Source of the DNA: a virus
Lineage: Duplodnaviria; Caudoviricetes
Virus record (IMG/VR): IMGVR_UViG_3300030392_001100
Location: 1 to 50,558 of that record
Reading direction: 5' to 3' (one strand)
DNA length: 50,558 bases
The stretch's first letter is position 1. The number at the start of each line of letters is the position of its first letter. Below are positions 826 to 26,300 of this stretch, piece after piece. The position numbers were made by a program, and so were the translations under genes. Under the pieces are notes generated by a model. That model had not been told where the DNA came from. It saw only the letters and a list, made by a program, of their open reading frames with translations, and searched no databases.

Positions 826-1047
826 ATGGGAAAGAGGCTTGGGGCAGTACTGAAGTCCGCACGAAAGCGGAAGGGCGTCTCCCAGCAAAAGCTTGTTGCA
901 AGGATCGAGCTTGAGCACGGCGTCTCAATCAGGCAACCGAGGATGAGTGAGTACGAGTGCGGACGCAAAGAGCCAACAGAAATTGAGCTTCGGTGCATCC
1001 TTGAATCGCTTGGATACGAACCGAAAGGCAGGAACGCAGATGGCTGA
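826..1047 (+). CDS. XRE-family HTH transcriptional regulator
   Basis: ATG at 826 after GGAG; LKSARKRKGVSQQKL...MSEYECGRKEP fits the HTH_XRE pattern. Confidence 0.8.
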   Translation: MGKRLGAVLKSARKRKGVSQQKLVARIELEHGVSIRQPRMSEYECGRKEPTEIELRCILESLGYEPKGRNADG

Positions 1048-1999
1048 GATGTCGCGAGAAGAGTGGCTGCAAGAGAGAACCAAGGGCCTTGGCGCAACCG
1101 ACTGCGCCAACATCATCGTCAACTCAGCGAACCAGTCAGACCGGATTGGCTGCTGGAAGGGCAGCCTGTTCTCCATGTGGAGCACCAAGATGAAGCTCAG
1201 CCCAGCAGGTGGCGCGTCGTCACCCGCTGCACGACGGGGCCAGATCATGGAAGAGTACGTCTGCAGGATGTACCAGGAGCACCTTGGCGATGACGCGAAA
1301 CTCATTCAGCAGGGGCTGACCTGGCACCCGAAGCGCCAGCACATCTTTGGAACACCAGACCGCTTGGTAGAACTGGATGGCATTCGCTTCGGCATGGACG
1401 CAAAGACAAGGCGAAGCAGCAGGGGCTGGGGAGAGGAGGGCACGAACCTCCTGCCACTAGACACCGAGGTCCAGTGCCGGGTCTACATGGACATCTTTGA
1501 TACCCCATACTGGGATGTCGCCACACTGTTTGGGCTCGATGACTTCAGGATCTATCGAATCCACAACGACCAGGGCCTCATCGACGACATCTTGGATATC
1601 TGCGAAGGCTGGTTCTCGAAGCACGTCACTGGAGAGACGCCACCGCTCATGGACGGCAGCGCGCGCGCAAAAGAGGCCATCTCCAAGATGCACCCGAGAG
1701 AGTCGTCAGACACCCTGAGAAGCCCGACCGGGCACGAGTTGGACATACACAAAGAGCTTCTCAATGTTCGAGCCGAGCACAAGTCCCTGAGCACTCGAAA
1801 GCTAAAGCTCGAGAATCAACTTAGAGAGGCCATTGCAGACGATATTGGCATCGAGGGCGTAGCAACCTGGAAGGCCTCAAAGGACCGCAAGAGGTTTGAC
1901 TCGAACGCCTTCAAGGAAGCCGAGCCAGAGCTTTACGATAAATACACGACGACTGAGCCGGGTGCCCGCACCTTGCGGCTCATAGGGGAGAGCAAATGA
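1040..1999 (+). CDS. YqaJ-like (lambda Exo family) exonuclease
   Basis: REEWLQERTKGLGATD N-terminus, RGQIME, GTPD...MDAKT PD-(D/E)xK core, QCRVYM; directly upstream of RecT; ATG at 1040 overlaps the previous gene's end. Confidence 0.9.
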   Translation: MAEMSREEWLQERTKGLGATDCANIIVNSANQSDRIGCWKGSLFSMWSTKMKLSPAGGASSPAARRGQIMEEYVCRMYQEHLGDDAKLIQQGLTWHPKRQHIFGTPDRLVELDGIRFGMDAKTRRSSRGWGEEGTNLLPLDTEVQCRVYMDIFDTPYWDVATLFGLDDFRIYRIHNDQGLIDDILDICEGWFSKHVTGETPPLMDGSARAKEAISKMHPRESSDTLRSPTGHELDIHKELLNVRAEHKSLSTRKLKLENQLREAIADDIGIEGVATWKASKDRKRFDSNAFKEAEPELYDKYTTTEPGARTLRLIGESK

Positions 2000-2904
2000 C
2001 TACGGCGATGACGCACCAAGAGAACCTCACAACGCTCCAGGGATACCTGGTGAAAAAGAAGGACGTGCTCGTTCGCATCGCGCCAAAGGGCTCCGACGTG
2101 GAACGAATCATGCGCGTTGCGCTCTTCGAGGCAGCCAAGAATGAGAAGCTGGCGCAGTGTACGCCGGTCTCGGTCTACCTGAGCCTCGCAAAGGCCTGCG
2201 AGCTAGACTTGGTTGCAGGCGGCGTTCTGCATCGGTGCTCCCTGGTTCCGCGCTGGAACAAGGGCAAGAAGGGCTTTGAGGCCGACCTGATGATCGAGTA
2301 CACCGGGCTGATGGACCTCGTGCGGCGCTCAGGGGAAGTCAAGAACTTCACCGCCCGCTGCGTCAGGGAGAACGAAGTCTTCAAGCATACGTTTAGCCTA
2401 GAGCAAGGTGAGACGCTGATTCACGAGCCCTGCTACGACAACGAGCCAGGAAACCTCAAGATGGTGTACGCCGTCTGCGAGTTCAAGGACGGCTCCAAGC
2501 AGGTGGAGGTAATGCGCAGAGACCAGGTCGAGGCCGTCAAACGATGCTCTCGCTACTCTGACCAGGGGCCGTGGGCGGAGCACACTGAAGAGATGTGGCG
2601 GAAGACCGTCATTCGACGGATCTGCAAGTACTTGCCGCTGACCCCACAGGCCAAGGCAGTACTTGAGCACGACATCAACGTCGAGTATGGAGATGGGGCG
2701 GATCCGTTCATGAGTCCGGAAGTAGAGAAAGACCTATCGGCGCGGCCCAGCAGGGACACCTCAGGAGTGATTGATGTATCATCAGATGATGACTTCGATC
2801 CAATCAGCGTATTTGAGGCAGACGACAAGGAACGTGCTACTCAACCAAAGAGCCGCGCAAGCGCAGCCATCAAAAACGCCAAGGCGAACCAGGAAAAGGA
2901 GTAA
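1996..2904 (+). CDS. recT: RecT-family ssDNA annealing recombinase
   Basis: LAQCTPVS, YTGLMDLVRRSG, GPWAEHTEEMWRKTVIRRICKYLPL motifs; ATGA overlap with the exonuclease. Confidence 0.92.
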   Translation: MTTAMTHQENLTTLQGYLVKKKDVLVRIAPKGSDVERIMRVALFEAAKNEKLAQCTPVSVYLSLAKACELDLVAGGVLHRCSLVPRWNKGKKGFEADLMIEYTGLMDLVRRSGEVKNFTARCVRENEVFKHTFSLEQGETLIHEPCYDNEPGNLKMVYAVCEFKDGSKQVEVMRRDQVEAVKRCSRYSDQGPWAEHTEEMWRKTVIRRICKYLPLTPQAKAVLEHDINVEYGDGADPFMSPEVEKDLSARPSRDTSGVIDVSSDDDFDPISVFEADDKERATQPKSRASAAIKNAKANQEKE

Positions 2905-2907
2905 ACC

Positions 2908-3525
2908 GTGTCATCACTGATTGATCAGGTAGAAAGCAAAAAGGGGTACCGAGGGAGCCAGGAGGATGTCGAGCCCGAAGACAAGAAGCTCATGCAATCC
3001 TCTGAGCTTGTCAGCATCGCAAGCGACATCTGCGAGCGCAACAGCATCGAAGCAAAGCAGCGCAAGCGGTGGGCCAAGCACCGCAAGCGGCTGCACGACG
3101 TGTACTGGCCCCTGGGCTCAATCCTGGGCAAGTGCAACACCAAGAACTTTACCGGCATCATTGCGGCCTCTCTCGATCACTTTGACAAGACATGCAAGCA
3201 CGTCCAGCCGAACGGCGAGTGGAAGATTTGCGACTATGAGGTGGACATCCGCGACTCAAAGGATGGGGAGCGCATAGTCATGGCCGTGCAGTTCGTTGAC
3301 GCGCTCAACAAGCCAGACCTCAACTACCACAACGGTCAACCGGCGGTGAGCGTGAACATCACGGCCCCAGCCATCCCAGATGAGCTTGTATCTGCGCTCA
3401 AGGAGCGCGGCAGCGGTGACGATGAACTCAAGGACCTGCTCAAGCAGTTCGTTGGCGTCATGGCTCAGAAGGAGATGAGCAAGGTCAGTGAAGAGACACC
3501 TGCAGTCATCGAGGAACAGGCATGA
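2908..3525 (+). CDS. Hypothetical protein in recombination operon
   Basis: 205 aa, GTG start after AGGAG, tightly packed between recT and ssb. Confidence 0.75.
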   Translation: MSSLIDQVESKKGYRGSQEDVEPEDKKLMQSSELVSIASDICERNSIEAKQRKRWAKHRKRLHDVYWPLGSILGKCNTKNFTGIIAASLDHFDKTCKHVQPNGEWKICDYEVDIRDSKDGERIVMAVQFVDALNKPDLNYHNGQPAVSVNITAPAIPDELVSALKERGSGDDELKDLLKQFVGVMAQKEMSKVSEETPAVIEEQA

Positions 3526-3926
3526 TCAACAAGGCAATCCTTCTCGGAAACCTCTGCGCAGACCCAGAGGTCAAGCCACTGCCCTCCGGGACCACCGTGG
3601 CAAACATGCGCCTGGCCACCAACAGCCGGCGCAAGGTTGGCGACCAGTGGGAGGACGTTGCGGAGTTCCACAACGTCGTCGCCTTCGGCAAGACCGCAGA
3701 GAACGTCGGCAAGTACTGCGCCAAGGGAAAGCAGTTGTTCATCGAGGGCCGCATCCAGACCAGGAAGTGGCAGGACAAGGACGGCCGCGACCGCTACAGC
3801 ACAGAGATTGTGGCCGACCAGGTCCGGTTCCTGGGCGGCGCAGAGCAGCGCCAGGAGCACACAGCAGCAGCGCCAGCGCCAAGCAATGGTGGACAGCAGA
3901 GGCCGGCGGACGACATCCCGTTCTAA
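3522..3926 (+). CDS. ssb: Single-stranded DNA-binding protein
   Basis: MINKAILLGNLCADPE, EGRIQTRKW, C-terminal DDIPF. Confidence 0.95.
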   Translation: MINKAILLGNLCADPEVKPLPSGTTVANMRLATNSRRKVGDQWEDVAEFHNVVAFGKTAENVGKYCAKGKQLFIEGRIQTRKWQDKDGRDRYSTEIVADQVRFLGGAEQRQEHTAAAPAPSNGGQQRPADDIPF

Positions 3927-4183
3927 TGGGTGAGCCCCCGGATGATATTCTAGAGCGCCTCTCTGAGGCCAACCCAGACGCCGTGCTGTGGGACGGCTTT
4001 GATAAGGCCGTCGTAGGCATTGGCGCCCGGGTCAACCTTGGCCCCGTCGCCATCTACGACCGAGAGAAGTGCATCAAGGTCCTAACAGCGCAGGGCCTGT
4101 CTCGAGAAGATGCAGAGGAGTACTTCAGCTACAACGTAGAGGGCGCATACGTCGGTGAGTACACGCCAATCATTGGGGTGTAG
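3926..4183 (+). CDS. Small conserved phage protein of unknown function
   Basis: TAATG coupling to ssb; DGFDKAVVG...YDREKCI...EDAEEYFSYNVEGAYVGEYTP resembles a recurrent phage hypothetical family; the 3488 start in the ORF track is probably too long. Confidence 0.8.
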   Translation: MGEPPDDILERLSEANPDAVLWDGFDKAVVGIGARVNLGPVAIYDREKCIKVLTAQGLSREDAEEYFSYNVEGAYVGEYTPIIGV

Positions 4184-4249
4184 CGCAACTGGCAGCGCAC
4201 CTGGTTGTTACCCAGGAGGTTGTTGGTTCGAGTCCAACCGCCCCAGCCA
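4174..4249 (+). tRNA. tRNA-Asn (GTT)
   Basis: 76-nt cloverleaf: acceptor TGGGGTG/CGCCCCA, D stem GCGC/GCGC, anticodon stem CCTGG/CCAGG with loop TT-GTT-AC, T arm GTTGG-TTCGAGT-CCAAC, G73 and encoded CCA. Confidence 0.95.
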
Positions 4250-4703
4250 TCTCCCCACTCACCTCGTCCATGCCGCCGAAGCTTCATCGAAAGGGCGAGA
4301 GGCCCAGTCGGACCCAGTCGGGCGAGGTGGGTGGGACTTCCGTGGCTGAGCTATGGCCGCCAAAGCAATTGCCGTTATTCGGCCCCAGGTGGGTCCTAAG
4401 CGGCTCCAGATGCACAGCGCCGGGGTGTGGGCGCATTCGCCAAGCTGTGGCGCTGCTGGGCAGCCCAGTGGGCGAGAACAACGGTCCGCAGGGCGGGTGG
4501 AGATGCGAGGGCGGGCACGAGGGCTGGATCTGGCCAAACAACTGCGAATTCCCCGCCCCACGAGTTACGGAGCCTGGCTAACGTCCAATAGGACGTAAGC
4601 GCTGGTGTGAAGTGCCTCACTGCTGGGATGGGCCTGGTGGTGGGGTGGCTTTGCGCCTCCCGTGGATTGAGCCCCGTTCAGGTGTCACGGCCTGGGCGGG
4701 GTT
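4250..4703 (+). ncRNA. Candidate large structured non-coding RNA of unknown family, downstream of tRNA
   Basis: 16-bp helix 4254-4269/4320-4335; 10-bp long-range helix 4338-4347/4563-4572; nested 4357-4380/4476-4496; hairpins at 4456-4468 and 4581-4596; non-WC pairs are mostly G-U on +; no convincing ORF. Confidence 0.55.
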
Positions 4704-4704
4704 T
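4670..4704 (+). terminator. Probable terminator hairpin ending the rightward transcript
   Basis: AGCCCCGTTCAGGT-gtcacg-GCCTGGGCGGGGTT, 14 bp including G-U pairs on +; short T run; abuts the stop of the convergent operon. Confidence 0.55.
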
Positions 4705-4957
4705 ATCCGTCCTTGTTCTCGATCATCTTGGCGATGTCTTTCTTGAGCTTGTCCTCTTCCTTGCTCTTGATGATCGCGTCGAGCTTCGCCGTCTGATCTG
4801 TCAGTTGAGTAGCAATCGTGTCCGTCATCTGGTCAATGCGCTTCTGGGCAAACCAGTTGGTGACGATCAGGTAGATGGCAAAGATGCCCATCGCTCCGTA
4901 CTCCAGCAGTGCGGTGACTACGCTGCTGGCGCTATCGGCTACGGCTTGCTCTTCCAT
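4703..4957 (-). CDS. Holin-like membrane protein (one TM plus coiled coil)
   Basis: LLEYGAMGIFAIYLIVTNWF TM segment and charged C-terminus; directly after the endolysin. Confidence 0.6.
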   Translation of the reverse strand: MEEQAVADSASSVVTALLEYGAMGIFAIYLIVTNWFAQKRIDQMTDTIATQLTDQTAKLDAIIKSKEEDKLKKDIAKMIENKDG

Positions 4958-5532
4958 TAGAAGCTTGGCTCATCAATGAGCGTATAGGTGAACGTCTCGC
5001 CCCAAAGCTCGGCAGACCTCTTCACGAGCTTCATGAACTGCCGGAAGTCGTATTCGTTGGCAAAGACCTGGCAGCCGGCGCTCCACTTGTTGACTTGAGT
5101 AGACTGAGCCCCAGCCTTGTGTATGTTGATCCCGAAGTACCCCTCGTCAACACTCTCTGGATCCATGTCCAGGACTTCGTCCTTGTTGGCGTCCCGGTAA
5201 ACCTTGACCGAGCCGCCACGCTGAACCAGGGCATCGTATTGGCCGCGATGCTTTCCTATTTTGTAGGCGCCCCTGTACTGCCCAGGAACGAGGATTGCAG
5301 TCCCGTTCACATTGCTTGGATTGTCTAACCAGTACCGCCCAGGGTCCGTAGTGCAGTTCCAGGTTCGCGTTACCCAGCCCTCATCGTCCTTGTAGGCCAG
5401 ACAGATGCGGTCATCGAAGCAGTTGGCGCGGCTTTCCTTGGACCGTATGCCGATGATGTTGACGTTGTACGCGCCGTTCTCGAATACAGCGTGACCCAGC
5501 GAGTCAACGACATCGAGCAGCACAGGCCTCAT
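4957..5532 (-). CDS. Putative endolysin with YkuD/L,D-transpeptidase-like His...SAGC motif
   Basis: GINIHKAG...VNKWSAGCQV; NIIGIRS, CTTDPG; flanked by small membrane proteins. Confidence 0.7.
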   Translation of the reverse strand: MRPVLLDVVDSLGHAVFENGAYNVNIIGIRSKESRANCFDDRICLAYKDDEGWVTRTWNCTTDPGRYWLDNPSNVNGTAILVPGQYRGAYKIGKHRGQYDALVQRGGSVKVYRDANKDEVLDMDPESVDEGYFGINIHKAGAQSTQVNKWSAGCQVFANEYDFRQFMKLVKRSAELWGETFTYTLIDEPSF

Positions 5533-11390: not shown

Positions 11391-14300
11391 TTAACGGCGC
11401 GTGTAGATATCGCCCTCCTCTTCCTTTTTGATTTGGTCCTTGACGTCGTAGCTGTGCCTCCGGAGGTAGCGCGCCCACATGACGTCTTCTTGTGCGATCG
11501 GGATAGGCCGAACCCCAAAGAACGCACTCAACTCTTCTGGCCCGCTCAACTCCCCAGCACGAGGCCCAGCCAGGTCCGGCGAGATGTCTGAGGGCAGCTT
11601 GACCCGCGCAGGCCTCGGATAGTCCAGGTACCCGTGCCTCACGCCGTGCATGCGGACAGTCCGCAAGCCCTCCATCGCTATCTCAACGGCGCCGATGTTC
11701 GACCGGTCCAGGCTCTCGATGACATCCATGGAGCGCCCGAAGCCCGGTGTTTGGATCAGCCTGCGCAGGACCCACCAGTACTTTCCGTTGCGCGCGTGGT
11801 AAAAGCCGAGCCCAGGAAAATCCTCTGTGAGCGGCTCGTACATCGGCTGGTCGTCTATATCGAGGATGTCCTCGACTACCATGCCGCCGGTAAGCATGTA
11901 GTCCGCCTCAACGAAAAACGCCGGCACCCGGTTGTATTTGTCCAGGTCGCGCTCAAAGAAGATGTCCTCGTTAAACATGAACACGGGCCCCGCTTGGATC
12001 CATGGCGTGAGACGAGACATCATGCCTCTCAGGTGCTCGGTATCTCTAGCTGCCGACGTCATGGCCTCGGCGGAGCCAAGAACATCGACCCACAGGCCCA
12101 CAGCGTCCGTAAACGGAAGTGGCGGCAGAATAAACATCACCTGACGATTTAGGTGTGTCTGTTTTCCAATGTCTCGGAAGTACACCGGCAACCGGCCCTT
12201 CAGGTACTCGGGCAGCACGATCTCTGGGTCTTCCTCGAGATTCACCTGTTGAATCCCACGCATCAGGCGGGCCTGGTTGATGACCCGGCTCGGGTGTGTC
12301 AACACTGTGTCCCAAAACAGATCCTGATTCTTTCGCATGTAACTGTAGAACAATATGATGTCGCGCATGGACTTGCGCTCAAAGTCGGTCAGGGCGCTGT
12401 AGTCGTAGCCAACCTTCCTGGCCAGACTGGCTGCCGCATCCGGCGATGCTCCGCGCTTTAGCTCAGAGATGAACGTGCCAACACGGAAGTAGTTATCAAT
12501 AGCCGTTGCAGACTCGATCAGCGTGTCTTGCCAGCCAGAGAAGCCGCTCGTGATACGGTCGAGCACGCCGCTTGGCGTCATCTTGGCGATGTCATCCGCA
12601 ATAGCGCCCACCGTCTCTATCTTGATGAAGCTCTGGTTGAGCCCATAGCGCTGAGCCATCTCAGCAAGCATGCTGGACGTGTAGATCCGGCCATCATTGG
12701 TGACGATGGCTGGCGCATTCGGGCGGTATCCGCCCTCCTTGAACAGTCTGGCCACAACCGCAAATGTCATTCGGGTTGGGAACGCGGCGGTGATTGACCG
12801 CAACAGACCTAGACCCTGGTACATCTGGAACCAGGCGCCAACCCCAACACTCACGTAGTAGGCAGCGTTCGGGATAATGATTCCGGTTGTCACTCCCATT
12901 TTGATTCTGGCTGCCGTTATCGGGTTCATGTTCCAGAGCCAGTTGACCGTCTTGCCCACAGCGCTCCAGGCAATGACATCCTTGTCGCGCTCGATCTTCT
13001 CAGCAATCTTTGGGTCTTTGAGTGGAAGCCCCCGACGCTCAGGCAGGAACTTCTTGCTGAGAGACGAGCGGCCGTAGGTGTTTCCAACGCCAGCGGCGCG
13101 ATCGATCGCAGACTGTAGGTGCTCCTTTGCGGCGCTTGGTATGAATATTTCCGTGCCATCCGGGGCCGTAAAGGTCTCCCACTTTCCGCTGAACGTGCCG
13201 ATACCCCAGAGATCGATGATCTCCATCGCCTTCAGGTAGGCACGCATGTCGTGCAGCTTGTCCGCCCCATCGAGGGGGCCTGGAACCCGGTCACGCTTCG
13301 GATAATTTGATGGGTCCGGCGCGTTCGGTTTAATTGTCGCCACACGCTTGCGGTTCCGCCAGAGATTTCTGGTTGATCGATCGCCAGCAAGCGTAGATGA
13401 CAGGTAGTGCTTGACCCGCTCGGCATACGCGGCCTTGTCGAAGTTTGGTCCGAACTGTTTGGCGCTGTCGAGGTCGCGCACATCGAACCTGAGGTTGTAC
13501 CTGGTCAGGTCCTCCAGCAGACGATTGAATTCCTGTGTGGCCTTCATTCGAATGATCATCTCAAGCATGACCTCACTCATGTCGATGCGAGACATGCGGT
13601 CTTTCTCGAGGCCCGTGTGGTACCCGCGCTGAGATACGAAGTCGATGAGTTCCTCTAGCTCCCCGTTAAAGAACCAGTGGTAAAGCTGCATCTCCTGCGG
13701 AAGCGACAGGCCAGCATAGAGCCCTGACTTCTCTGACCCAGAAATGCTCGATGCGATCTCATAGGCCTTCTCTCTAGCGACCTCAACCTTCTTGTCCAGC
13801 GCATAGTGGATGTCATCGATCGCACCGCCAAACTCGAACTGTTCAAACTCGTTTAGATCTTCAAGGGACTGCGTCCTCAGGCGCTTCTTGTAGATCTCAA
13901 GCGTATCAATGGCAATCGCAACGGGCTCCGGAAGCAAGTTACCCTCTTCCCTGAGCAGCATCTTGATCTGATCGAGGTCCGCGAAAAGCTCTTCCGTGGT
14001 GAAGTCGGCGTACTCGTCTGCGTTCGGGAACTTGTCAGGATTCTCTGAATCCCACCGACGGCGTCTGTTGTCCTCAACGCGCTTCAGATCCTTGAACTTG
14101 CTCCGCATATCCAAGAGCGGAGATGTCTTCGACTCATCCAGCCAGATCTTGCTCGGATGAATTGGCCATTCGAGGGACTCGCGAAGCTCATTGATGATCT
14201 TTGCGTGGATCCGCTGCTCCGTTGGGCCCTCGTGGCCAGGTTCTGCGCGCGCGGCGCGTGCGATCTCACGAGCACGGCGCCTCACCCAATCTGGAGCATC

Positions 14301-17300
14301 CGCCATCCTGCGGGCCCCGCCCTGGAGAAGGGTCCTAACGATTGGATCAATCTGTGACAGTTCTTCGCCCAGGCTGAACCACGAGCGAATCCAATCCCTG
14401 CTTCCCTCAACGACTCTCCACCGCTTGTCGTCGGCAAGATTGTTTACCGCGCTCTTGAACATGTTCCAGACCGCATAGCCCATGGACGGCGAGATCCTCT
14501 CGCTGTACCCGGTCTTCCTGGAGCCAGCGCCGGCAACGACGTCATTCATGACCTCAAGCGCATTGTTATACTCTGTCGGGGTCGGCCGAGAGTAGTCGTA
14601 GTCAGGCTCAAGCATCCGGGCGTAGATGATGTTGCCCATGGGCTCGCCAGCCATATCCTCAACCATGCGCTTGAATCCGGCGGCCTGGGCCTCATTCAAC
14701 TCATAGACCTCAAACTCAACGCCGTCTCGAACCTCGGTCGTTACCAGTTTGGCGACCTCCTTCGGATGTAATTGCATGTAGTAGATTGTACGGTCGCGAA
14801 CCTGCTTATCAATACTCTTGAGACGGCTCGCCGGGACGTGGCTTCTGACTGTGATTCCGACAAGCTCCGTCGGCCCGGATAGCTTTCGTATCTGTTCAGT
14901 AGCAACATACGCGTACATCTTTGAGAACAGATCAATCGCGTCAACCTCGGTAACATCCTCGGGTAAGTCCATGGCCTGGCGCAAGTGCAGCTCTCTGGTA
15001 TCGATGCGCTCCCAACTCATCTTCTGCTGAGCCTTCCTGGTGCCACCTTCATTCCAGCGCCTGCCCATGTCAGCATCAAGGTTCACGCGAGGCATCCTGG
15101 CTTCACGGGATGCCGCAACCAGTCCAACAGCCCCGGCTGCAGCAACATCGGTGGGCCGGAAGTACGCATCAAAGAGATCGACCATCCGGCCAGAGAGGAC
15201 ATCTGGTTGGTTCCGTACACGCAGCCAGTAATCCTGCATCGTGCGGTAAAGCTCTACAAACTTGCGCCGCACCGGTCCGCCCGGCCCGATTCTGGTAAGC
15301 AAGAACCACTTCCAGGCCTCTGCGATCTGTTCTGATGCCTCAGGTGTAAGTCGGCGGCCAGGAAACTCCCACCAGCCCATGCCGGCAATCAGATCCTGCT
15401 CGATCAGTTCGGGATACACCTTGGTCGGGTAGTGCGAATACAGGTCATCTCGCCACTGCGCTCCCAGGATGGCCTCTAACAGGTGTCCGTTTTCGTGGAA
15501 CAGAACACCAATGTCGCCAGTCTTGAACATGCGAATAAGCAGGTCGCCAGTCGTCTGATCGATCTCAAAGGCTCCGCGTGGCGCCTCAGGATCACCGCTG
15601 AACATGATTCTGTGCCCCACGCCCGGCTCGTGACTGTACAGCCGCACCTCTGGATCCAGTGATGTCTTCCCGGCATTCCTGAAGAAATGCAACTCAGCCA
15701 GTTCCCGCCGAAGCTCCATCAGCGCAGCGGCAGACTGTCCAGGTATTGAGCTTGCGCCAGGGGCCACGGTCATCTCTGGCTCATAGTACCGACGGATCTG
15801 GTCCCACCTGAGCCACTGCGCGCCAAACGTGGACAGTCCAGCGTCCTTGGCCGTCGGGTCATTTCTGATGACGTTCACAGCCCTGGTATACGCATCAGTC
15901 GTGACACGCGCCTCGCCATCCTTGATTGCCTGGACCAGCGGATGGTCTGGGTACAGCTTGTCCCACTTGGTGACGGCTCGCTGGACGTTAAGCAGCGACT
16001 CTGCCCGCTCTACGCCCCTGCCAAGCCTGCGCATGTCCTTGGCCCCAACTCCAGCCGTTCTGCCAGCACTAAGCGCGGCGCGAGCCATTGTCAGTTCTTT
16101 CCGGCGAGCACCAACATCAATCTCAATTCCACGCGCGCGGACCTTCACTGGCCTTGGCGCCAACGTGGCCTGAGTGCGCGCAACCCAGTCGCTGCTGTAG
16201 TTCTCAAAGTAGTCCTTGAAGTCCACGTCCTGGCGCGTGGCGATGGTCTGCTTTGACGCGCCAACACCAGGATCGCTCTCTCCGCGACCCTGCTTCCACA
16301 TCTTGTACCAGTCACGAACGCGCTTGCTTGCATCAGGGATGATGCTTCGCCAGTACTTGCGGATCATGTGAACGTCGATGGCGGCAACATTCGAATTCGC
16401 TGGGTCTGTCAACGAAAGCGCGAATGAAGAGGTCTTTGTGCCCATCCCCCGAGTGCTCGACTGTACACGCATGATGAACTCATCAAACATCTCGTCTGGG
16501 TGCGGCTCGAACCACAGATACTGCTGCTTGCCTGACTCCACGCGGGCGAGATCTTCATCGAAGGCGACTAAGAGATCCGCAATCAAGCGCGGATCGATCT
16601 GGCTTCTGGCAACGAAGCCCTCCGTTAGCCTGGCAACTGGCGATGATGGAATGAACTCACCAGCGGTGTACCTCAGGAACTCGCGAAGGCTCTCGTACTC
16701 CAACTCCCGACGCTTAATGCCGGCCTCAGACTGCTTGATCCGCTTGCGGATAGAGGTCTTGCGGGCCTTGGCTTTCTCGGTCTTGAGCAGCGCCTTGTCA
16801 GCGTCGATGTCCTGGCGCGCAGTGTCCATCTCAAGCTCAATGCGGTCCATCCTGCCGATGACATCCACTCTGGCATCCCTGTATGCCTTCTCGTTGAGCT
16901 TCTTGAGTGTGTCCCATTCCCAGGCCTGGAACGGCGTCCCCGGCTCCCACCACTTGCGGAATCCGCCACCACGGACTTCAGCAAGGATGCCCTTGTGGAT
17001 GTACTTGGCGTCCGCCTTTGAGCCCGCAGTGATGGCGAGCCCCACGAGGTACTGGGCCTCCTCTCTGCTCAGGTCTTCGTAGATTGCCCTGGCCTCGTCC
17101 AGGTACGCGTCAATCACAGACTCGCCGTACACAGCTTCACCACGGCCGACCAGTTGCTCGGCCGCATCTCTGGGCAGACCTACTTCAACGTATACCTTCG
17201 ACAGGGCGTCCAGGTCCTGCCCCTCCAGTTCCTCCGGGGTAAACCGGCGGACGTCTTTCGCTCGGTTTTCAAACCATGCCCGCTTGCGGCCTCGAGACTC

Positions 17301-20300
17301 GCGGATCAGGTTCGCCGTTTGCTTCAACTGCGCACGAGTACGTGGCCGGATGGCTGCAGTCAGTAGCTGATTCTCGGTGATATTGGTCCCAGCGCTCGTC
17401 ATTGCAAGGATGAGGATTCCAAGCTGATCGACGGCATGCACATTGAGCCGGTCCAGGTAGGCCTGGCTGGGCGTGGCTCCGGCTTCAGGCGCTTCTGGCC
17501 TGTATTTGGTCGTCCCCATTGAGTTTAGGTGCTTGCGGTAGAGGGCGATCGTCAGGTCTTCGTAGGCCTCTGACGCGGCGCGCATCACCGCCGCGATGTC
17601 CGCGTTGCTGTAGACCCGGTCCTCAGGCATCGTGAAGCCAAGAGCCTCATCGATGATGTCCTCTGGAATCCCGGCGGACTTGTAGATCTTCCGCAGACGA
17701 GACGCATCCTTGCCCGGCATGTTCTCGATGTCCTGCAGATTGAACTTCGGATCCAACATGATAGGGCGTCTGGTGACGTAATCGAGATCCGGGAACGAGA
17801 ATGTACCCTCCGTTCCTCCCGGAACCAGCGCAACTGAGCGGTCTGTACGAACGAATCTTACGTTGAAGCTGATGGATCGAGGCGGACCATTGGGGTCATC
17901 CGGCAGCGAAAGCTCAAGCTCGACCTTCTGGCTGACCACCTTGAGTGCTGCCACCTTGTCCGGCTGCAGCCTCTTCTTTGCCTCGTCGATGGCGTCTTTG
18001 GAGAGTCCAGACTGGTCCAGGCGCTGCCCAATGGCCTTGCCCACAGCCTCGTGGGGCTTCCCGCCCTCAATGTCGAGGTGCCGGCCAAGCTCTGGCGTCA
18101 GGTCTCTGACGACTTCGGAGTGTCTAGCTGGGGTTGGGTCAGGAAGACGCTCGCCGTCAGTTCCCCGGCCTGGGGCGCCTTTATCAGAGGCTCCACGGTT
18201 CGCGGTTTGGCTTCTGGCAAGGTTTGAACCTTTAACGCCTTCCTCCAGGCTGACGTCAAATCCTGCTCGACTCGTGTGCCTGATGTCTTCTGCTTGGAGC
18301 CCTTCCGAGATGGCATCGTCATACCCCTTGATTTCATAGGCCCCATGGGCTCTTCCACCCTCTGGAGCGTTCACATAAATGTTCTCACGGATGTGGCCAG
18401 CGGCAACAGTTCCGAGACCGTTGGCCTCCGCGAAGTCGCTAAGCGCAGCAACTGCGTGCCGGGTGATCGTCAAAAACTCGGCCGGGCTGACCGGTCGCGA
18501 GGACATCTCGGGCAGATAGACCAGTTCGATGCTATCAGCGCTCCTGGCGAGCGCGATCCCTGCCTGCTCAAGCTCAGCAACCCGAAGGAAGTCAGCCAGT
18601 TCCGGGCGGGCCATGATTCGATCGTTTAGCTCGATGCGCATGGTCGGAGCGCGGGGCCCACCATCCGGCCCATTGAACAGCAGGTCGGCAACAGTCTCAG
18701 CGGAAATCGGCGCGCTGACGTCATCTAGGTAGCCCTCTGGCAGGTCAGACGAGCCCGTTGACTCGCGAATGACCAGTGACTCCTGCTTGTAGGCCTTGCT
18801 GAACTGGGACAATCGTCCACGGATCATCGTGAGATCACCGCCCAGTTCCAACTGCACGAACGGCTGGCCAGGCTCTCCACCCCATCCAGGAAGCCCACCC
18901 TCATCGAGATCTGGGCCCCTCACGCCACCAAGCTGGATATCATCCGGATGCGCATTCTCGGTCAGAACGCGGTTCAGGTCCGGCTTGAAGATGTTGTAGA
19001 CCTCGGTGAGCACCTGGTCCAGTTCCGCGTGGATTGAATCCCGCGCGTTTAGCTGCATCTCGGTATAGCGCCCGCCCTGCTTTGTCCTGGCCTGCTCATC
19101 GAGCTTCTTGAGGTCTCTGAGGAGCGCCCTGTACCGGCTGTACCGAATACCAACCTCAGGAAACTCGCCGCGAGCCCCGCTGATGCCCACCAGCAGCCGG
19201 CTGGGTCCACGGCTTTCGACCGGCGGCTTCATCATTCCAGGCTCAACACCGTAGCGTGTGGCAAACTCGAGAGCGTTCTCTGCTGGCACCTGAACCGGTA
19301 CAGTTGTCTCTCCCTGGTCTCGCAGTGCGGCGAACCGGTGTCTCCCGTCAGAGAACCCAACGGGCTTCTCGGCATCTGGACCCAACGAGACCCGTGGAAC
19401 CTCAATGGGCTGTCCGCTTCGGGCAAACGCCAGGAAGCGATCGAGCTTGGCGATGCTGGCCTTGCCCTTTCCGCTTGTGGCGTCGATGTCCTCTCGCCTG
19501 GGGACGTAGAAGCCGCTGTCCTTGGCCCAGTCGGCGTCCAGCTTGGCTACGTCGGCATGGATGGTTCGATAGCCGCCATCGTGGGCGCGCTCCAGGTAGG
19601 TGAGACCGACGCGCTCAGCCTCCGCAACACCAGGGCGGGCAAACTCAGGCTCTATGCGAGAGGCGCGAACAGCCCATGCGCGAACTCCCTCATCCAGATA
19701 ATCATCCAGCTTCTTCAGGGCTCTCCCCGCGTCCTCAAATCGAAACTCGCCAAGAGCTACCGCAGCGTCATTTGCCAGTCGTTGAACCTCGTTGTAGACC
19801 GGAATCTTGCGGTGTTCGTCGGCATACTCCTGACCCAAACGACGAAGCTCTGCTTCAACATCTGCCCATTTATCTGACCGTGCGCCAGCCGCAACTTCCC
19901 GGGCATGTTGACTCTTCATGCCATCAAGGAGCGAGTAAGGTTTACCTCGATGCGTGAGAAAGCCGCCTATTTGCTCGGCCATGCCGTGAATCTTGCCGCG
20001 TATCGTGCCATAGCCGCGTTGTTTCTCGTCGCCCTTTTTCCCCATCCGATGAAGCAAATCACCAATATGCTCTACTTGGTGACCATACTCGGGCACGCGA
20101 ACGTCAGATTCGCGAATACGCATCGCCGCTTGTTCTGGCCCCTCATAGCGCTGAACGTCCGACATAGCCTTAAACGCTTCGTTGATTTCCTCTGGAGTCT
20201 CAGGCAGCTTCGCCGCAGCCGGGGCCTCAGGCTCTACGCCTCGGGGCCGGATGACGTTGGAGTAGATGATGTCTGCAGCAGTTGGCTCAGGCTCTCTGGG

Positions 20301-23300
20301 TCCAGGCTCTGCACCTCGCTCAGGGCCTCCTTCCACTTGCTCGAGTCGTCCCCGTGGCGCTCCACCGTCATCACCCTTTGCTCCAGGTAGCCGATCACGA
20401 ACTCCTGCTCGTCCTTCAGCGGGGAGTTTTTCTCCGGGCTCCAGAGACTTTGCAACATTTTTCGTACCAAACTGTTCATAAGAATCCCTCAGGGCTTTGT
20501 AGTCGTCCCAGTGCTCATCGAGCACGCGGCGCATGGCGCGCTTGATCGGCTCCTCCACCTCAAGGTCGGCAAGCCGTGTGTGTATGTTTATCTCTTCTCT
20601 GACAAACGGATCGCCGTGCCCCGATTTCCTCATGTGGGTAGCCTCGTGGATCAGGACAGACCACCACGCGCCCACGACACCTTTGTCGGATTTCGCGACG
20701 TTCATCAGCGGGTTCAAGAAAAACGCCCTGTACGGAACCCTGATATGAACGCCTTCGTAGGTTTTGTCGAGAGAGATACCGCTGGCGTAAGGCTTCATGG
20801 GGTCGCTTAGACCCCCGTACCCAGGAACCTTCGCCATGCGCTCCTTGAACTCAACAATAATGCTGCCGATTTTGGCAAGCATTGGCTCTGCGGATTCCGG
20901 GATTTCAAGGGTCGTGTTGTTATGAAACAGCGGCCTTTTGGGGTCAACAGCGACTGTGTCAATGAAGTCCTTCGCAGTCTTAAACTCTTTTTTGGCCTCA
21001 AAGCTTTCTGCAATCTGGCGCTCCGATGTCTTTACCTCTCCCTCGCTAATCCTGATGGCCGGCTTCATCCCCGCCATGATCTCTTCAATCTCAACGCTTC
21101 TTTCGAGCTTCCTGGTCTCAGGAAGAAATCGCGGCTGAACCTGCTCTCCGCCGGCCATCAGGTCATCGAGGTTCACCCTCTCCATCGGTATAGCGGTCTT
21201 AAAGACATCTGATGTTTCTGCGGCCTCAAGCCCGTGGCCGTACTCCGCGAGGAAACCTTCCATCGCTTGGATGTCGGCCAGGATTGTACTCCTATACTCC
21301 TCCCTGGTCATATTGAAGGGGTAGGAACCATCGATGGTATCGACGTTCGGCTTTACATCAAAAATAAGGTGGTACGGCAAGGTGCCCATGAGTGGAAGTG
21401 AGGCACGGTCGAATTGCCAAACGCCAGCGGATAGGACCTGCCTGCTCGTCCACGAGATTTTGTCGAGCTTCGTATTGCCCACATAAATATCAGCCTCGCC
21501 CCAATCAAACGTGGCGGTAGTCCAGAGCTTGAACTCGTCGGCATCAAAATCACGCCCTAGAACCTTGCCGGGATCTCTGGTGGTTACCACTACGTCGCCT
21601 TCCCCCCAGTTTTCACGAGTGACATGGTGCTCCCTGATTTGAACATCACCAATCAACGGCTTGGTAAAAAACGGAGTAGTGTCGCCATCGATTGACGGAA
21701 GTTGGACCTCCGCCTTGTACTCATGCGACTTTCCAGCGTATTCGACGTACTCATCAAACGCCCAAGCCTTTACGCTCGTTCCGTTTGGCTCTGTCGTTTG
21801 CGTTGTCTTGATCTTGATCTTCCCAGACAGGATTATGTCTGGCGTGACCCTTGCTACAGTCTTTTGGCCATTGCGAACTGTGACAAGCTCAAGCGCTCTG
21901 GAGCCAAACAAAAAACCCATCTTGGCTTTACCGTACCCGCCAGAGCGTCTGCCTGGTGGAAGGTCGCCCTTGTAGCTCCCTGACGCGGTAAAGAACGCAT
22001 CCTTGACAACATCGCGCAGCATTCCGCTTCCGTTGTCGGCCACAGTGATACTTCGGTCGTTGTGGTCAATGGTGACATCGATCCTGCCCTCACCCGGTGA
22101 CATCTCGCCCAGATACATGGACCCATCAACGCCATCCCAAGCGTTCTGGACAAGTTCCTTGATTGTGACATCGGCCCAGCCCGCCTTATACATGTTGAGG
22201 CCTTCTTGCTGGGATTGGCGCTCAATGTCGTTCTTAAACGCAATCGTCTCTTCAATTCCACCTTCCGGCAGTTCTTCAACCTGACCCGTTCCCTCGTATT
22301 TTATTTGGTCAAGCTGAGCGGCAATTTCAGCAACCTTGCGCTCCTGGGCAAGGGCCCACCATGGCGGTCTCCTTTGGGGTAGCTTGGAGTGGACCATTTC
22401 AGCCACCATGCCCCAAGTCTCGTCGTCAACGTCCTTGTATAGGTGTCGGTGACCGTTGATATGGTCCTCAAACTCGGTCAGATTATCAGTCAACGAGTAC
22501 TCGTAGGCCTCGCCTGCTGATACAATCTCGCGCACGATTGAATCAGCAAAATGGTCGGCAAGCTCCTCGCCACCCTCAAGCGCCTCGATTCTGGTCAAGA
22601 CCGCAGAGCGCGCGACTTCGTCTCGAAGTTGATTCAGGTACCAGTCGAACCGTTCCGGGCCTTCGAACCGGGGATCCAAGACTTCAGCGCGCGGGATTTC
22701 AGACTCGGGGATGATCTCACGAACCTTGTCCAGCACACGCTCCGAAAATGGGGTCCACGTTCCCCTATACATGCCAACGTCATCAAAGTCGTAATTAATG
22801 GTTGTCTCGGGGTTGTCCGGATACCAGCCATCAAGCTGATTAGAAACATGATCCTCAATGCTCCGACCAGCTTGCTCAGGGTGATGGTGCACCGCGCTTC
22901 GGATATTCATCGCAAAATCGTCCGCAACACTATCGGCATCGCGCTTCTCACCCTCGGAGAGGGGCCGGCGGACATGTCGGGGCAACTCAGACTCGGGGAT
23001 GATCTCACGAACCTTGTCCAGCACAAGCTCCGCAAATGGGGTGTACCTTCTCCCAGGGCCGGGCTCGAAGAGCGCCGCATAGCCACCTTGAAACACCTCC
23101 GCCTCATCAATAACCCACGATGCTACGCCCTCTAAGGTCGGACTCTGTAGATGCTTTGGCTCATATCTCATGTAGGCCCTGATAACTTCCACGACCTGAT
23201 CGGCAGCGAACGTGGCCAACTCTTCCTGGGGGTCGGGTCGGATAGCCGGCTCTGGGGCCTCAGGCTCAGGCGCCTCGTCCACCTTCTTGCCGAACATGTC

Positions 23301-26300
23301 CTTCTGGATGGACTCAGCGTCTGGCGCTTCCGCTATTCGTTTTCCTGCTCCGGCAAGCTCTTCACGGTACCCCTCAAGCTCCCGAGAAATGGCTCCAATA
23401 TCAGATTGTGCTCTAAGTCCAGGCTGAGAAGCACCCCCTGCACTCGTTCTGCGGAATCTTGCGTTGATTCCGGCCTCTTCGAGGACATCTTCATAGTTTT
23501 CAACAACTCTTTCGCTGATTCTTTGCTTAAAAGCTTCTGCGTCATATGCCGACTCCCCGCCTATATGTTTCTCCAGCCTGCCAGGATCATAACCACGCCG
23601 CCCAATTATGCCTGAAAAATACTCTACCGCGACCTCGCGAAACCTTACGGCCCTCTCCCGACTGCCTGTGGCCGCCTCGATGTCGTCTGCGTACAGGTGG
23701 ATTGCCTGCATGAGCCCAACGTTTCTAGCTTCAGTGAGCGAGGCATCCATCTGCTGAACTACGCCTGAGGCCGCAAACTCGTTCCATCCACCAATGGCAC
23801 CTTTATCTCTGACTCTCTCAGCAAGGTTCCAGTCAGGGCCCCAACCAGCCTCTCCCGCTGGCCGGTCAAGTACAAAGCCTATACCGTCCGGCGCACCAAT
23901 CGCCCGAATCGAGGCGGAATCCCCAAGCATGCCTCCTACAATATCGCCAGGGCTGGGCGGGGTACCTGTTGGGTGTACGTGGGTAAAGATTAGGTTTTGA
24001 TGCAACGATGAGCGGATGTAGTCCTCTGGCTCCAGCGGAACGTGGGATACCTCACCGCGTCGGCGGCCTACCTGTTTCCCGCTTAAGGCATCAACCCAAG
24101 CGCCGTGTTCCATCTCTGAGCCAATGAGCGCACCCTCAAGCTCGCCAAGGTCCATGTCTGCGGTAATGGGTCCGACAGATGGCTCATCATAGTCGAGTGG
24201 GCTCTTTTCAAATTTGGGGTCCATGGCCCTGGGGAGCTTTGCGGGATCTCCGCCGAAGCGCCCTAACTGCATCGCGCTGTAGACCAGGGCCATACCTGCC
24301 TGGTTGTGCAGTGGAAGCTCAGCAAATCCAAGCTCTTCAAGCTTGGACTGGAAAGCCGGAGAGTCAATCTCGATACCCAATCTTTCGCCAAGCCTAAGGA
24401 TCGAGTGCATGTCCAGGGTGTGCATGAACGAGAGCGATTCTTCGGCAACAGGCGCGGCGGGCTTTTCAGCAGTCCGCTTAGCGAATTCATAATCACGAAG
24501 AATGGCAATTTCGGCATCAAAGGCATCTGCAGCAGCATCACCCATATTGGCGCGAATAGCTTGGCTAAGACCGGTCCGCACCTGTTCGTGCTCGACCTTA
24601 GTTTCTTTCCCGTATCTCGTTGCTCTGGTGGTAACCTCAAACACTTCGCCTTCAGGCGAAAACTCACGATCAATGATCCCCTCGCCGACTCTTTCGTGCT
24701 CTGAGCGCGCCTTCGCTATTGCCACACGCTCTGCTTCAGTCTTTCCGGCTGTAGGTGGGGGAAGCTCCGGAACTTCCGGAGCGGCGGCAGTAGGCTCCCC
24801 AGCATGCACCCGGCCAAGAGTCTCAGCGCCGACGCTCCGCACCTCAGGATGGATTCCGCTGTACCTGGCGTTCGGGCCAGGTGTGCCACCAACCAAATGC
24901 CGCACCTTGTTGAAGTAATCTTCGGGGGTCTTGATTGATGGAAGCTTGGGGTCCTGAGCGAACCGCATGCCCTCGATCTCCATCAGCGCCATGTACAGGC
25001 CAACGTGATCTTGCTCAATAATCCCCTCTTCCGAGAGCTTCCGAATCTGCTCGAATACTGCATTATAGCCCTCTCCTGCCCTAAGACCGCGCGCAGTCGG
25101 CGTGCCCCTCTCAACGATCTCGTTGACGCTGTTGATCATCGAGCCGAAGGTCTGCCGCGAGACCCCCATGACCAAATCCTCAAGCGCTTCGTACCCGCCC
25201 TCAACGCCAAGCCGGCCAGCCACAACCTCAAGCTGACTTCTGATCAGCTTCTGCATGGGCGACTTGTGGATGTTCCCCGAGAGAACCGACTCTTTGATCA
25301 TCGCCATGATGACGTGATTGGATACAGAATATGAGTCCGCGTACTTGGGCGCCTTGTCTGTGCCGTAAACCAGCTTGTGGTACATCCTGTACGCAGGCGG
25401 CGAGGCCATGGCCATGTACATCTTGGTGCGGGGCACCCCTTTTGGGATCAACCTGCGTGGGATGGTCGCCATCCGATGTGCAGACATGCCGGCAGAGATC
25501 GGTACAGCCGCGCTGAACTCTTCCCAGGGGAAGATCCAATCGAGCAATACCGCCAGGTTCTGTGTGACTGCGTACTTCGTTGATCTGCGATCCCAGCCTG
25601 CGCGGTGCGCCAGCGCCATCTGGTTCCAGGTCAATCCTCCAGAACCAGATGCGACCGCAGCAAAGACCCGGTCCAGGTACGCTGAGCCGATAGTGCGGAT
25701 GCCGAGACCATAGGCGAAGTCAATGCCGGCCGGCGTGATGTAGGGGATTGGGGCCTCAAGCCAGAGTTCCTGGAGCCCCATGATCACCCGCATGGTACGA
25801 CCGAAGTTGCTCTCTACAACATTGACTGCGCCAACTTTCTCGTTGTCCTTGACCCGCTTGAGCATCATCTCGCCAAACGCACGCTCCATGATCTCACCGG
25901 CATGACCGCCAGTTGCGCCGCGAAGCTCGTGAGCCGCCCTCGCGGATTTCGCGATGGACTCAGGACTCGGCATTGCGTGAACAATTACTTGTTTACCGCC
26001 GCGTCTGATTCTATTGAGCAGCAACCCCGCCTCGGCCAGTTCCCAGAACGGCACCGCGTCGAGAGACTCTTGAATCTTGTCGTCATCTGCCCCGGCCTCA
26101 ACCTGACCGATTGCCCGCTGCAGCGAGCGGAGATCCTCTCGATCCACCAGCAGGGGCGTCTTTAATAGGACGTTCCTCAGCGATCTCGGCTGGACCGTTG
26201 TCACCGTATTGATCTGACGCCTGACCCAGCTATCGTCCATGTCTGGCCAGGTCTCTCTAATTGCGCGCTCAACGGTGACCCGATGGTCCACATAGGCCTG

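Follow-up and report, generated by a model that had tools for sequence, protein, structure and literature searches.

A probable composite of structured RNA element, small protein gene and hairpin cluster behind a phage tRNA-Asn gene

Described RNAs and the junction behind tRNA-Asn

Several described RNAs are close to the locus analysed here in position or in outline. GOLLD and ROOL are large RNAs with multiple pseudoknots, and many GOLLD RNAs exceed 800 nt (cited part of bioRxiv 2024.12.08.627333). Theta ribozymes, which are HDV-like, adopt a nested double pseudoknot with a catalytic C and place the cleavage-site G1 no more than 5 nt from a tRNA 3′ end (cited part of PMC10879173). The bacterial RNA YrlA carries a 5′ GNCGAAN0-1G motif, with a Ro60/TROVE gene within about 4 kb (cited part of PMC4201824). 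In the early region of T7, RNase III cuts R1.1, an intergenic RNA of 60 nt whose loop is asymmetric (4/5) (cited part of PMC6121014).

The stretch of DNA analysed (hereafter the window) is a virus record of 50,558 bases with an estimated completeness of 70%. Sequencing runs matching positions 3500-5500 were labelled marine, seawater, hydrothermal vent or simply metagenome. A rightward operon at 947-4183 (plus strand) encodes a RecE-like exonuclease, RecT, a 205-aa ORF, SSB and a PHROG 13182 ORF with overlapping starts and stops. It is followed at 4174-4249 (plus strand) by tRNA-Asn(GTT), which has an encoded CCA and an ordinary U8/A9 core (ARAGORN; Rfam RF00005, 67.2 bits) and of which near-identical copies are present in relatives. 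Convergent late genes, an 84-aa ORF and an endolysin-like ORF (phrog_33083, E 2.1e-17), lie at 4703-5532 on the minus strand. The leftward block of terminase, capsid and endolysin-like genes extends to 4703, and the stretch at 4250-4703 is its junction with the rightward operon. We infer that the RecE, RecT, SSB and tRNA-Asn genes and the studied region form one transcript.

An earlier note had taken this junction, which starts directly behind the tRNA CCA ending at 4249, for a gene-free gap holding a single structured RNA of about 450 nt. The position of the CCA and every pairing motif that it named were found in the sequence; however, 4342-4581 is a conserved protein gene, as judged from a homologue family and its residue pattern. 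The junction is very probably a composite of a structured element of ∼ 85 nt, a gene for a 79-aa protein and a hairpin cluster. The look of a large non-coding RNA came from GC-rich helices within this unannotated small gene, and what is left standing is a new covarying motif of ∼ 85 nt that is absent from Rfam, together with an uncatalogued family of small Cys/His proteins.

Like GOLLD and ROOL, the locus has a phage-encoded structured RNA close to a tRNA gene, but the conserved RNA here is ∼ 85 nt long, a protein gene fills the middle and no Rfam family is matched. The GOLLD and ROOL models gave no match in the window (gathering threshold), the region (E ≤ 10) or the relatives (E ≤ 5), and hundreds of nucleotides of continuous non-coding structure are absent, 4342-4581 being coding with a folding z of -0.29. 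The Rfam search that the earlier note had proposed found the tRNA as the sole match, both in the window at gathering threshold and in the region at E ≤ 10, and the same was true of 11 relative loci at E ≤ 5.

Theta ribozymes share with two of the 12 copies of the ∼ 85-nt element (element A) a position directly behind a phage tRNA. They differ in that element A begins with pyrimidines rather than G1 and is mostly not adjacent to a tRNA, and in that no HDV-like double pseudoknot was found: a theta/HDV-like descriptor, approximate in its topology and run without a positive control, gave 0 matches on either strand of 4241-4710. Between 4241 and 4256 the discriminator at 4246 is the sole G. The Rfam models for hammerhead, twister, twister-sister, pistol and hatchet ribozymes likewise had no match in the region or the relatives. 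With YrlA and other bacterial Y RNAs element A shares an outline of 80-130 nt, a long stem joining both ends and a large internal loop. It differs in that the GNCGAAN0-1G motif occurs in only two of the 12 sequences (the window and L003), at different positions, that D/T-arm mimicry is not evident, and that Ro60/TROVE (PF05731) was found in 0 of 10 records, most of them fragments, with the control positive in 2 of 14. Cultured phages matched the region essentially via the tRNA among the matches listed (20 of 565). A match in phage Gaia extends 20 nt beyond the tRNA, with nothing related there, and neither element A nor the 79-aa protein had a match in cultured phages.

The covarying element at 4253-4336

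Over 4250-4703 as a whole, the plus strand folded better than its shuffles (z -2.69, 0/100) and the minus strand did not (z -0.34, 30/100). The signal sits in the flanks, at 4250-4337 (z -4.45), 4605-4660 (z -4.6) and 4669-4706 (z -5.79), each reached by 0/150 shuffles, and the middle contributes none. The domain of ∼ 235 nt that had been drawn at 4338-4572 does not behave as a structure: with a z of -0.29 it is equalled by 60 of 150 shuffles, and its longest helix (10 bp) was equalled or exceeded in 132 of 200 mononucleotide shuffles. The helix proposed to close it (4338-4347/4563-4572) does pair at 10 of 10 positions, three of them G.U, but its ensemble probability, 0.58 without the tRNA, falls to 0.00 when the tRNA is included, and the helices proposed inside it have ensemble probabilities of 0.00-0.36.

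Element A occupies 4253-4336 on the plus strand. It comprises an outer stem, P1 (4254-4269/4320-4335), an asymmetric internal loop, an inner stem, P2, and a variable apical part. In the window, P1 is paired at 16 of 16 positions, as the earlier note had seen, with two U.G pairs and an ensemble probability of 0.99. Relatives (designated L followed by a number) were gathered via RecT, tRNA and element-pattern searches, and a model, R1, was built from nine distinct element A sequences. When 97 of the 110 collected sequences were searched with R1, 19 matches were obtained at E ≤ 1 and 16 at E ≤ 0.0003. L003 and L008 in this search, and L007 in a smaller one (E 0.0037), were found by the model and lie outside its training set. 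The final set contains 12 distinct sequences, of which L094 and L101 are one base apart.

P1 is at least 10 bp long in all 12 sequences. Its top ten pairs are formed in 120 of 120 cells with compensatory changes present, the 14 cells that are not Watson-Crick are every one U.G on the plus strand, and the remaining 106 compare with 87.5 in permutations (0/5000); in a second count the share of paired cells is 93.7% against 86.8%, and both sides have changed in 10 of 22 pairs (reached by 0/500 shuffles), counts which come from an alignment fitted to the model with relatedness uncontrolled and are not to be read as probabilities. Selection at the RNA level on the plus strand, which had been proposed for the entire stretch, is thus upheld for the first ∼ 85 nt by this covariation and for the terminal hairpin by its homologues, but not for the central domain; no long-range pairing joins the modules. 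Together, the aligned sequences indicate that the outer stem of element A is a real, conserved and covarying RNA motif absent from Rfam.

The inner part is more variable. P2 has 5-9 bp, with compensatory changes, in nine of the 12 sequences, and has just 3 bp in L003, L095 and the window. In 11 of 12 sequences pyrimidines predominate on the 3′ strand of the internal loop; the most divergent copy is that of the window. In L095 the apical part has been deleted with the core of the element retained. A pseudoknot combining P2 with the loop of a GGGA/UCCY hairpin was compatible with 86% of cells, which is not above shuffles (52/500; 161/500). The window also holds two tandem copies of a 9-base unit at 4302-4321, inside the element, and this repeat may explain the departure of the window copy from the inner structure of the family.

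Element A is a single-copy feature: when 29 records were searched in full, seven had a single match apiece; none was found in the 11 of those 29 that are at least 90% complete, nor in the DNA examined at the tRNA-Asn loci L093, L096 and L099/L084. A core-motif scan of prokaryote genomes returned three matches, all without the outer stem, and 11 of the 13 matches of a first pattern scan were due to chance. No description of the motif was found in those parts of the literature that the searches covered. It may be among the 10,006 candidate viral RNAs of PMC10690425 (cited part); six contig names were not found in six supplementary files of that paper, the search having covered files other than 1, 2 and 4.

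In all 12 sequences the element starts a few bases past a stop codon or a tRNA CCA, and its upstream neighbour varies (tRNA, FmdB-type, HTH-type or another gene). The association with a tRNA that the earlier note had supposed holds for the window and L095, where the element is directly behind the CCA, but is not constant: small ORFs intervene in seven sequences (L065, L066, L092, L094, L097, L100 and L101), and no tRNA lies within the 6.5-kb loci of L003, L007 and L008. The start of a small gene is no more than about 20 nt from the base of P1 in eight of the 12, seven of these genes being of the MKLHW/MKKHW type and the eighth that of the window. No same-strand ORF follows element A in L066, L095 or L008, and the one in L007 is doubtful and appears to overlap the convergent gene. 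No promoter-like site was seen near the element; in this genome its 5′ end could arise through tRNA 3′ processing.

The stretch between tRNA-Asn and the lysis genes in L065, L066 and L092-L101 is a hotspot in which small genes, among them an FmdB-type zinc ribbon, an HTH-like gene and several Cys-rich ORFs, are shuffled in varying combinations. The MKLHW/MKKHW proteins (∼ 55-80 aa) are a Cys-rich, uncatalogued family encoded behind element A in L065, L092, L094, L097, L100, L101 and L003, in the slot held by the 79-aa gene in the window; the L065 member had no match in Pfam.

The small protein gene and the 3′ hairpins

The middle of the junction encodes a protein of 79 aa with a C-x4-C ... W-x-C-x3-H pattern, from a GTG at 4342 to a TAA at 4581 on the plus strand. 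This is the frame of ORF 4270-4581, the coding of which the earlier note had itself named as counting against a non-coding RNA, and for the middle of the stretch a gene was indeed found, starting at GTG 4342. A word-indexed protein search returned only the protein itself; the family emerged from an exhaustive search of 1.84 billion representatives, which gave 24 relatives at E ≤ 0.001 and five at ≤ 1e-10. The best is a 75-aa protein with 58% identity over residues 1-69 (E 2.2e-23) and the same start position. When 20 of the 24 relatives were aligned (three long multi-stretch matches and one 182-aa protein were omitted), residues G51, W53, C55, H59 and G61 were invariant and C24, C29, P49, Q50, G58 and W62 nearly so. 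Identity ranges from 35 to 53%, and the spacers vary in length with the frame preserved. Because one frame is kept across variable spacers, a conserved RNA translated by accident would not be expected to give this picture.

The Atlas recognition value of the protein, 2395, is reached by 91 of 100 known proteins and by 9 of 100 shuffles. A single contig piece (run X6) differs from the window gene by three substitutions, two synonymous and one V to L. The codon score of the gene is -0.08, a value as low being found in 1.1% of 174 real chunks. Its synonymous-only score, at +0.087, is above zero. Among conserved small genes of relatives, two score -0.154 and -0.196 and two others +0.033 and +0.291. 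The overlapping ORF 4353-4598 is not supported by its codon score; it had no Pfam or PHROG match, and the three strain differences are all non-synonymous in its frame. Three minus-strand ORFs were also unsupported by codon score. No DNA copy of the 79-aa gene was found in the other collected loci or in the 29 related records. The gene is thus a rare passenger, its place in relatives being taken by another small Cys-rich gene.

As judged by its sequence relatives, the 79-aa family is an uncharacterised and uncatalogued family of small Cys/His proteins. The residue pattern and an all-β model (pLDDT 63.7) lead to the prediction of a small zinc-binding β protein. The protein resembles small phage zinc-ribbon proteins in its Cys/His spacing and in being modelled as all-β, and zinc-finger and zinc-ribbon types are among the nearest Atlas clusters that have a Pfam family (score 0.86, a lead only); unlike them, it matches no Pfam or PHROG family, and a Foldseek search with the single-sequence model gave no fold at E ≤ 0.001. 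The best PDB sequence match of the family profile is a zinc-finger domain, and is weak (E 0.0058). Residues 8-12 (window positions 4363-4377) form a QLPLF stretch, with similar residues in several relatives, which we take to resemble a sliding-clamp-binding motif.

The gene is followed by a cluster of hairpins on the plus strand. Both of those described in the earlier note were confirmed, namely a perfect 6-bp hairpin after the stop codon (ACGTCC/GGACGT, 4581-4596; ensemble probability 0.99) and a 14-bp terminal hairpin (4670-4703; z -5.79, probability 1.0). Between them lies one that had been missed, of 24 bp with 10 G.U pairs and a 5-nt loop, at 4604-4657 (z -4.6 on the plus strand and -0.16 on the minus; probabilities 0.94 and 1.0). 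No homologue of the 6-bp hairpin was seen. The terminal hairpin, which abuts the stop of the convergent gene, has a conserved 6-nt loop and homologues in L095, L100, L101 and L102 with consistent and wobble changes.

In relatives the cluster 3′ of the small gene includes a first hairpin that contains an internal loop and has no counterpart in the window, and a terminator-like long hairpin with a 5-nt loop, which is followed by a U-run in six of seven loci. By position and loop, the 24-bp hairpin of the window is possibly the counterpart of the latter. The 3′ hairpins resemble intrinsic terminators in being GC-rich and at the end of a transcription unit, with that U-run in relatives, but the 24-bp and 14-bp hairpins of the window lack a clean U-run and the loop sequences are conserved. 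Neither was called as an intrinsic terminator (6 sites called versus 4.4 expected). L065 lacks the whole 3′ cluster and L066 the terminal hairpin, and the 3′ parts are therefore modular.

A conserved 3′ module was observed at L100 1170-1290 (minus strand), at L101 1745-1935 (plus strand) and in L097, L092 and L066. It follows the small gene and opens with a GTTAC motif. Next come a covarying hairpin, whose internal loop is U-rich and whose apical loop is conserved, a small hairpin that is not always present, the long terminator-like hairpin and the terminal hairpin. The module had no match in Rfam or cultured phages. In L095/L081, ∼ 200 nt of hairpin modules (a short element A, two hairpins and the terminal hairpin) lie behind the tRNA with no gene between, and this arrangement is the nearest thing to the RNA that the earlier note had imagined.

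Possible roles of the element

A helix, an asymmetric loop and a helix between units of an early operon is the outline of a T7 RNase III signal, and for this reason we favour, at about even chances, a reading in which the composite is the 3′ end of an early polycistron and element A a cis-acting processing or stabilising signal recognised by a protein. The region would be transcribed as the 3′ end of the rightward early transcript with RecE, RecT, SSB and tRNA-Asn. A nuclease or an RNA-binding protein would recognise the conserved core of the element (long stem, asymmetric loop rich in pyrimidines on its 3′ strand, short inner stem), which would in this way define or shield an RNA end between the preceding unit, in this case the tRNA, and the downstream part. 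P1 overlaps, with its 3′ strand, the likely ribosome-binding site of the 79-aa gene (a run of purines ahead of GTG 4342), so that cutting or unfolding of the stem would be needed for efficient translation in this genome. The 3′ hairpins would then end the transcript, or protect it, at the point where it runs into the convergent lysis genes.

In its predicted form element A resembles T7 R1.1 in being intergenic, of similar size and in an early region, with two helices flanking an asymmetric internal loop just 5′ of the ribosome-binding site of the next gene; they differ in that element A is single-copy, has a loop of 2-3 / 6-8 nt rather than 4/5 and sometimes lacks a downstream gene, and the comparison concerns a putative way of working only. 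T7 has several early RNase III sites, and RNase III is not known to need as much conservation of loop sequence as element A shows. Counting against a processing signal are the one copy per record, the 3-bp P2 of the window, L095 and L003, and the lack of a downstream same-strand ORF in L066, L095 and L008, which leaves such a signal less purpose. An end-protecting stem would fit even there. As a processing signal, element A would be a modest addition to phage RNA biology.

Less probable, though in keeping with the single copy, the conserved loop sequence and the independence from neighbouring genes, is a second possibility: element A could be released as a separate small RNA of a new class (∼ 65-95 nt, closed by P1), cut from the early transcript and binding a host or phage protein in trans. 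This RNA would present the conserved pyrimidine-rich internal loop, possibly with a loop-strand pseudoknot, as a module independent of its neighbour genes, and its 5′ end would here be generated by tRNA 3′ processing. Indeed, the element is kept whatever the upstream gene and whether or not there is a downstream one, and in size and outline it resembles Y RNAs (cited part of PMC4201824). Against this stand the lack of a visible promoter-like site nearby, the scarcity of the YrlA motif (2 of 12) with no TROVE protein found in 10 records, and an apical part that L095 does without and that has diverged in the window. Were element A indeed released to bind a protein target, it would represent a new class of phage RNA. 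Element A is small enough for direct cleavage, self-cleavage or protein-binding tests.

Two further readings are improbable. That element A mainly controls translation of the small gene downstream is unlikely: such a gene does lie within about 20 nt of the stem base in eight of 12 sequences, and in the window the purine run before the GTG is within P1, but the element persists intact in L066, L095 and L008, which have no such gene behind it, and is kept although that gene differs between the window and its relatives. Less likely still, the hairpins might work as single-stranded DNA structures, as an origin or as a signal for recombination or packaging, where the two transcription units meet. 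They are single-copy and near the early/late convergence, with RecE, RecT and SSB genes close by, and single-stranded DNA hairpins tolerate G.T pairs; the wobble frequency (14 of 120 cells in P1 and 10 of 24 pairs in the long hairpin) nevertheless suits RNA better, and element A is co-oriented with the upstream gene and starts after its stop codon or CCA in 12 of 12.

Finally, a single tRNA-linked RNA of ∼ 450 nt, similar to GOLLD or ROOL and with the ORF as bystander or overlaid, is largely refuted and very improbable, for although the whole region folds well (z -2.69), structured modules flank the gene and L095 has ∼ 200 nt of modules without one, the middle is a conserved protein gene that folds no better than chance (z -0.29), modules are lost or swapped one by one in relatives (L065, L066), no long-range pairing connects them and Rfam has no match.

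Elsewhere in the window, a 5371-aa ORF at 11391-27506 (minus strand) gave only a weak match to HATPase_c_3 (E 2.4e-05). It had no match to RNA polymerase when tested for one, and N4-type hairpin promoters were set aside for that reason. A second stretch without a clear gene lies at 534-946, 5′ of the RecE-like gene; positions 63-815 are 77% identical in L066, and 534-946 may be a control region or contain a small gene.
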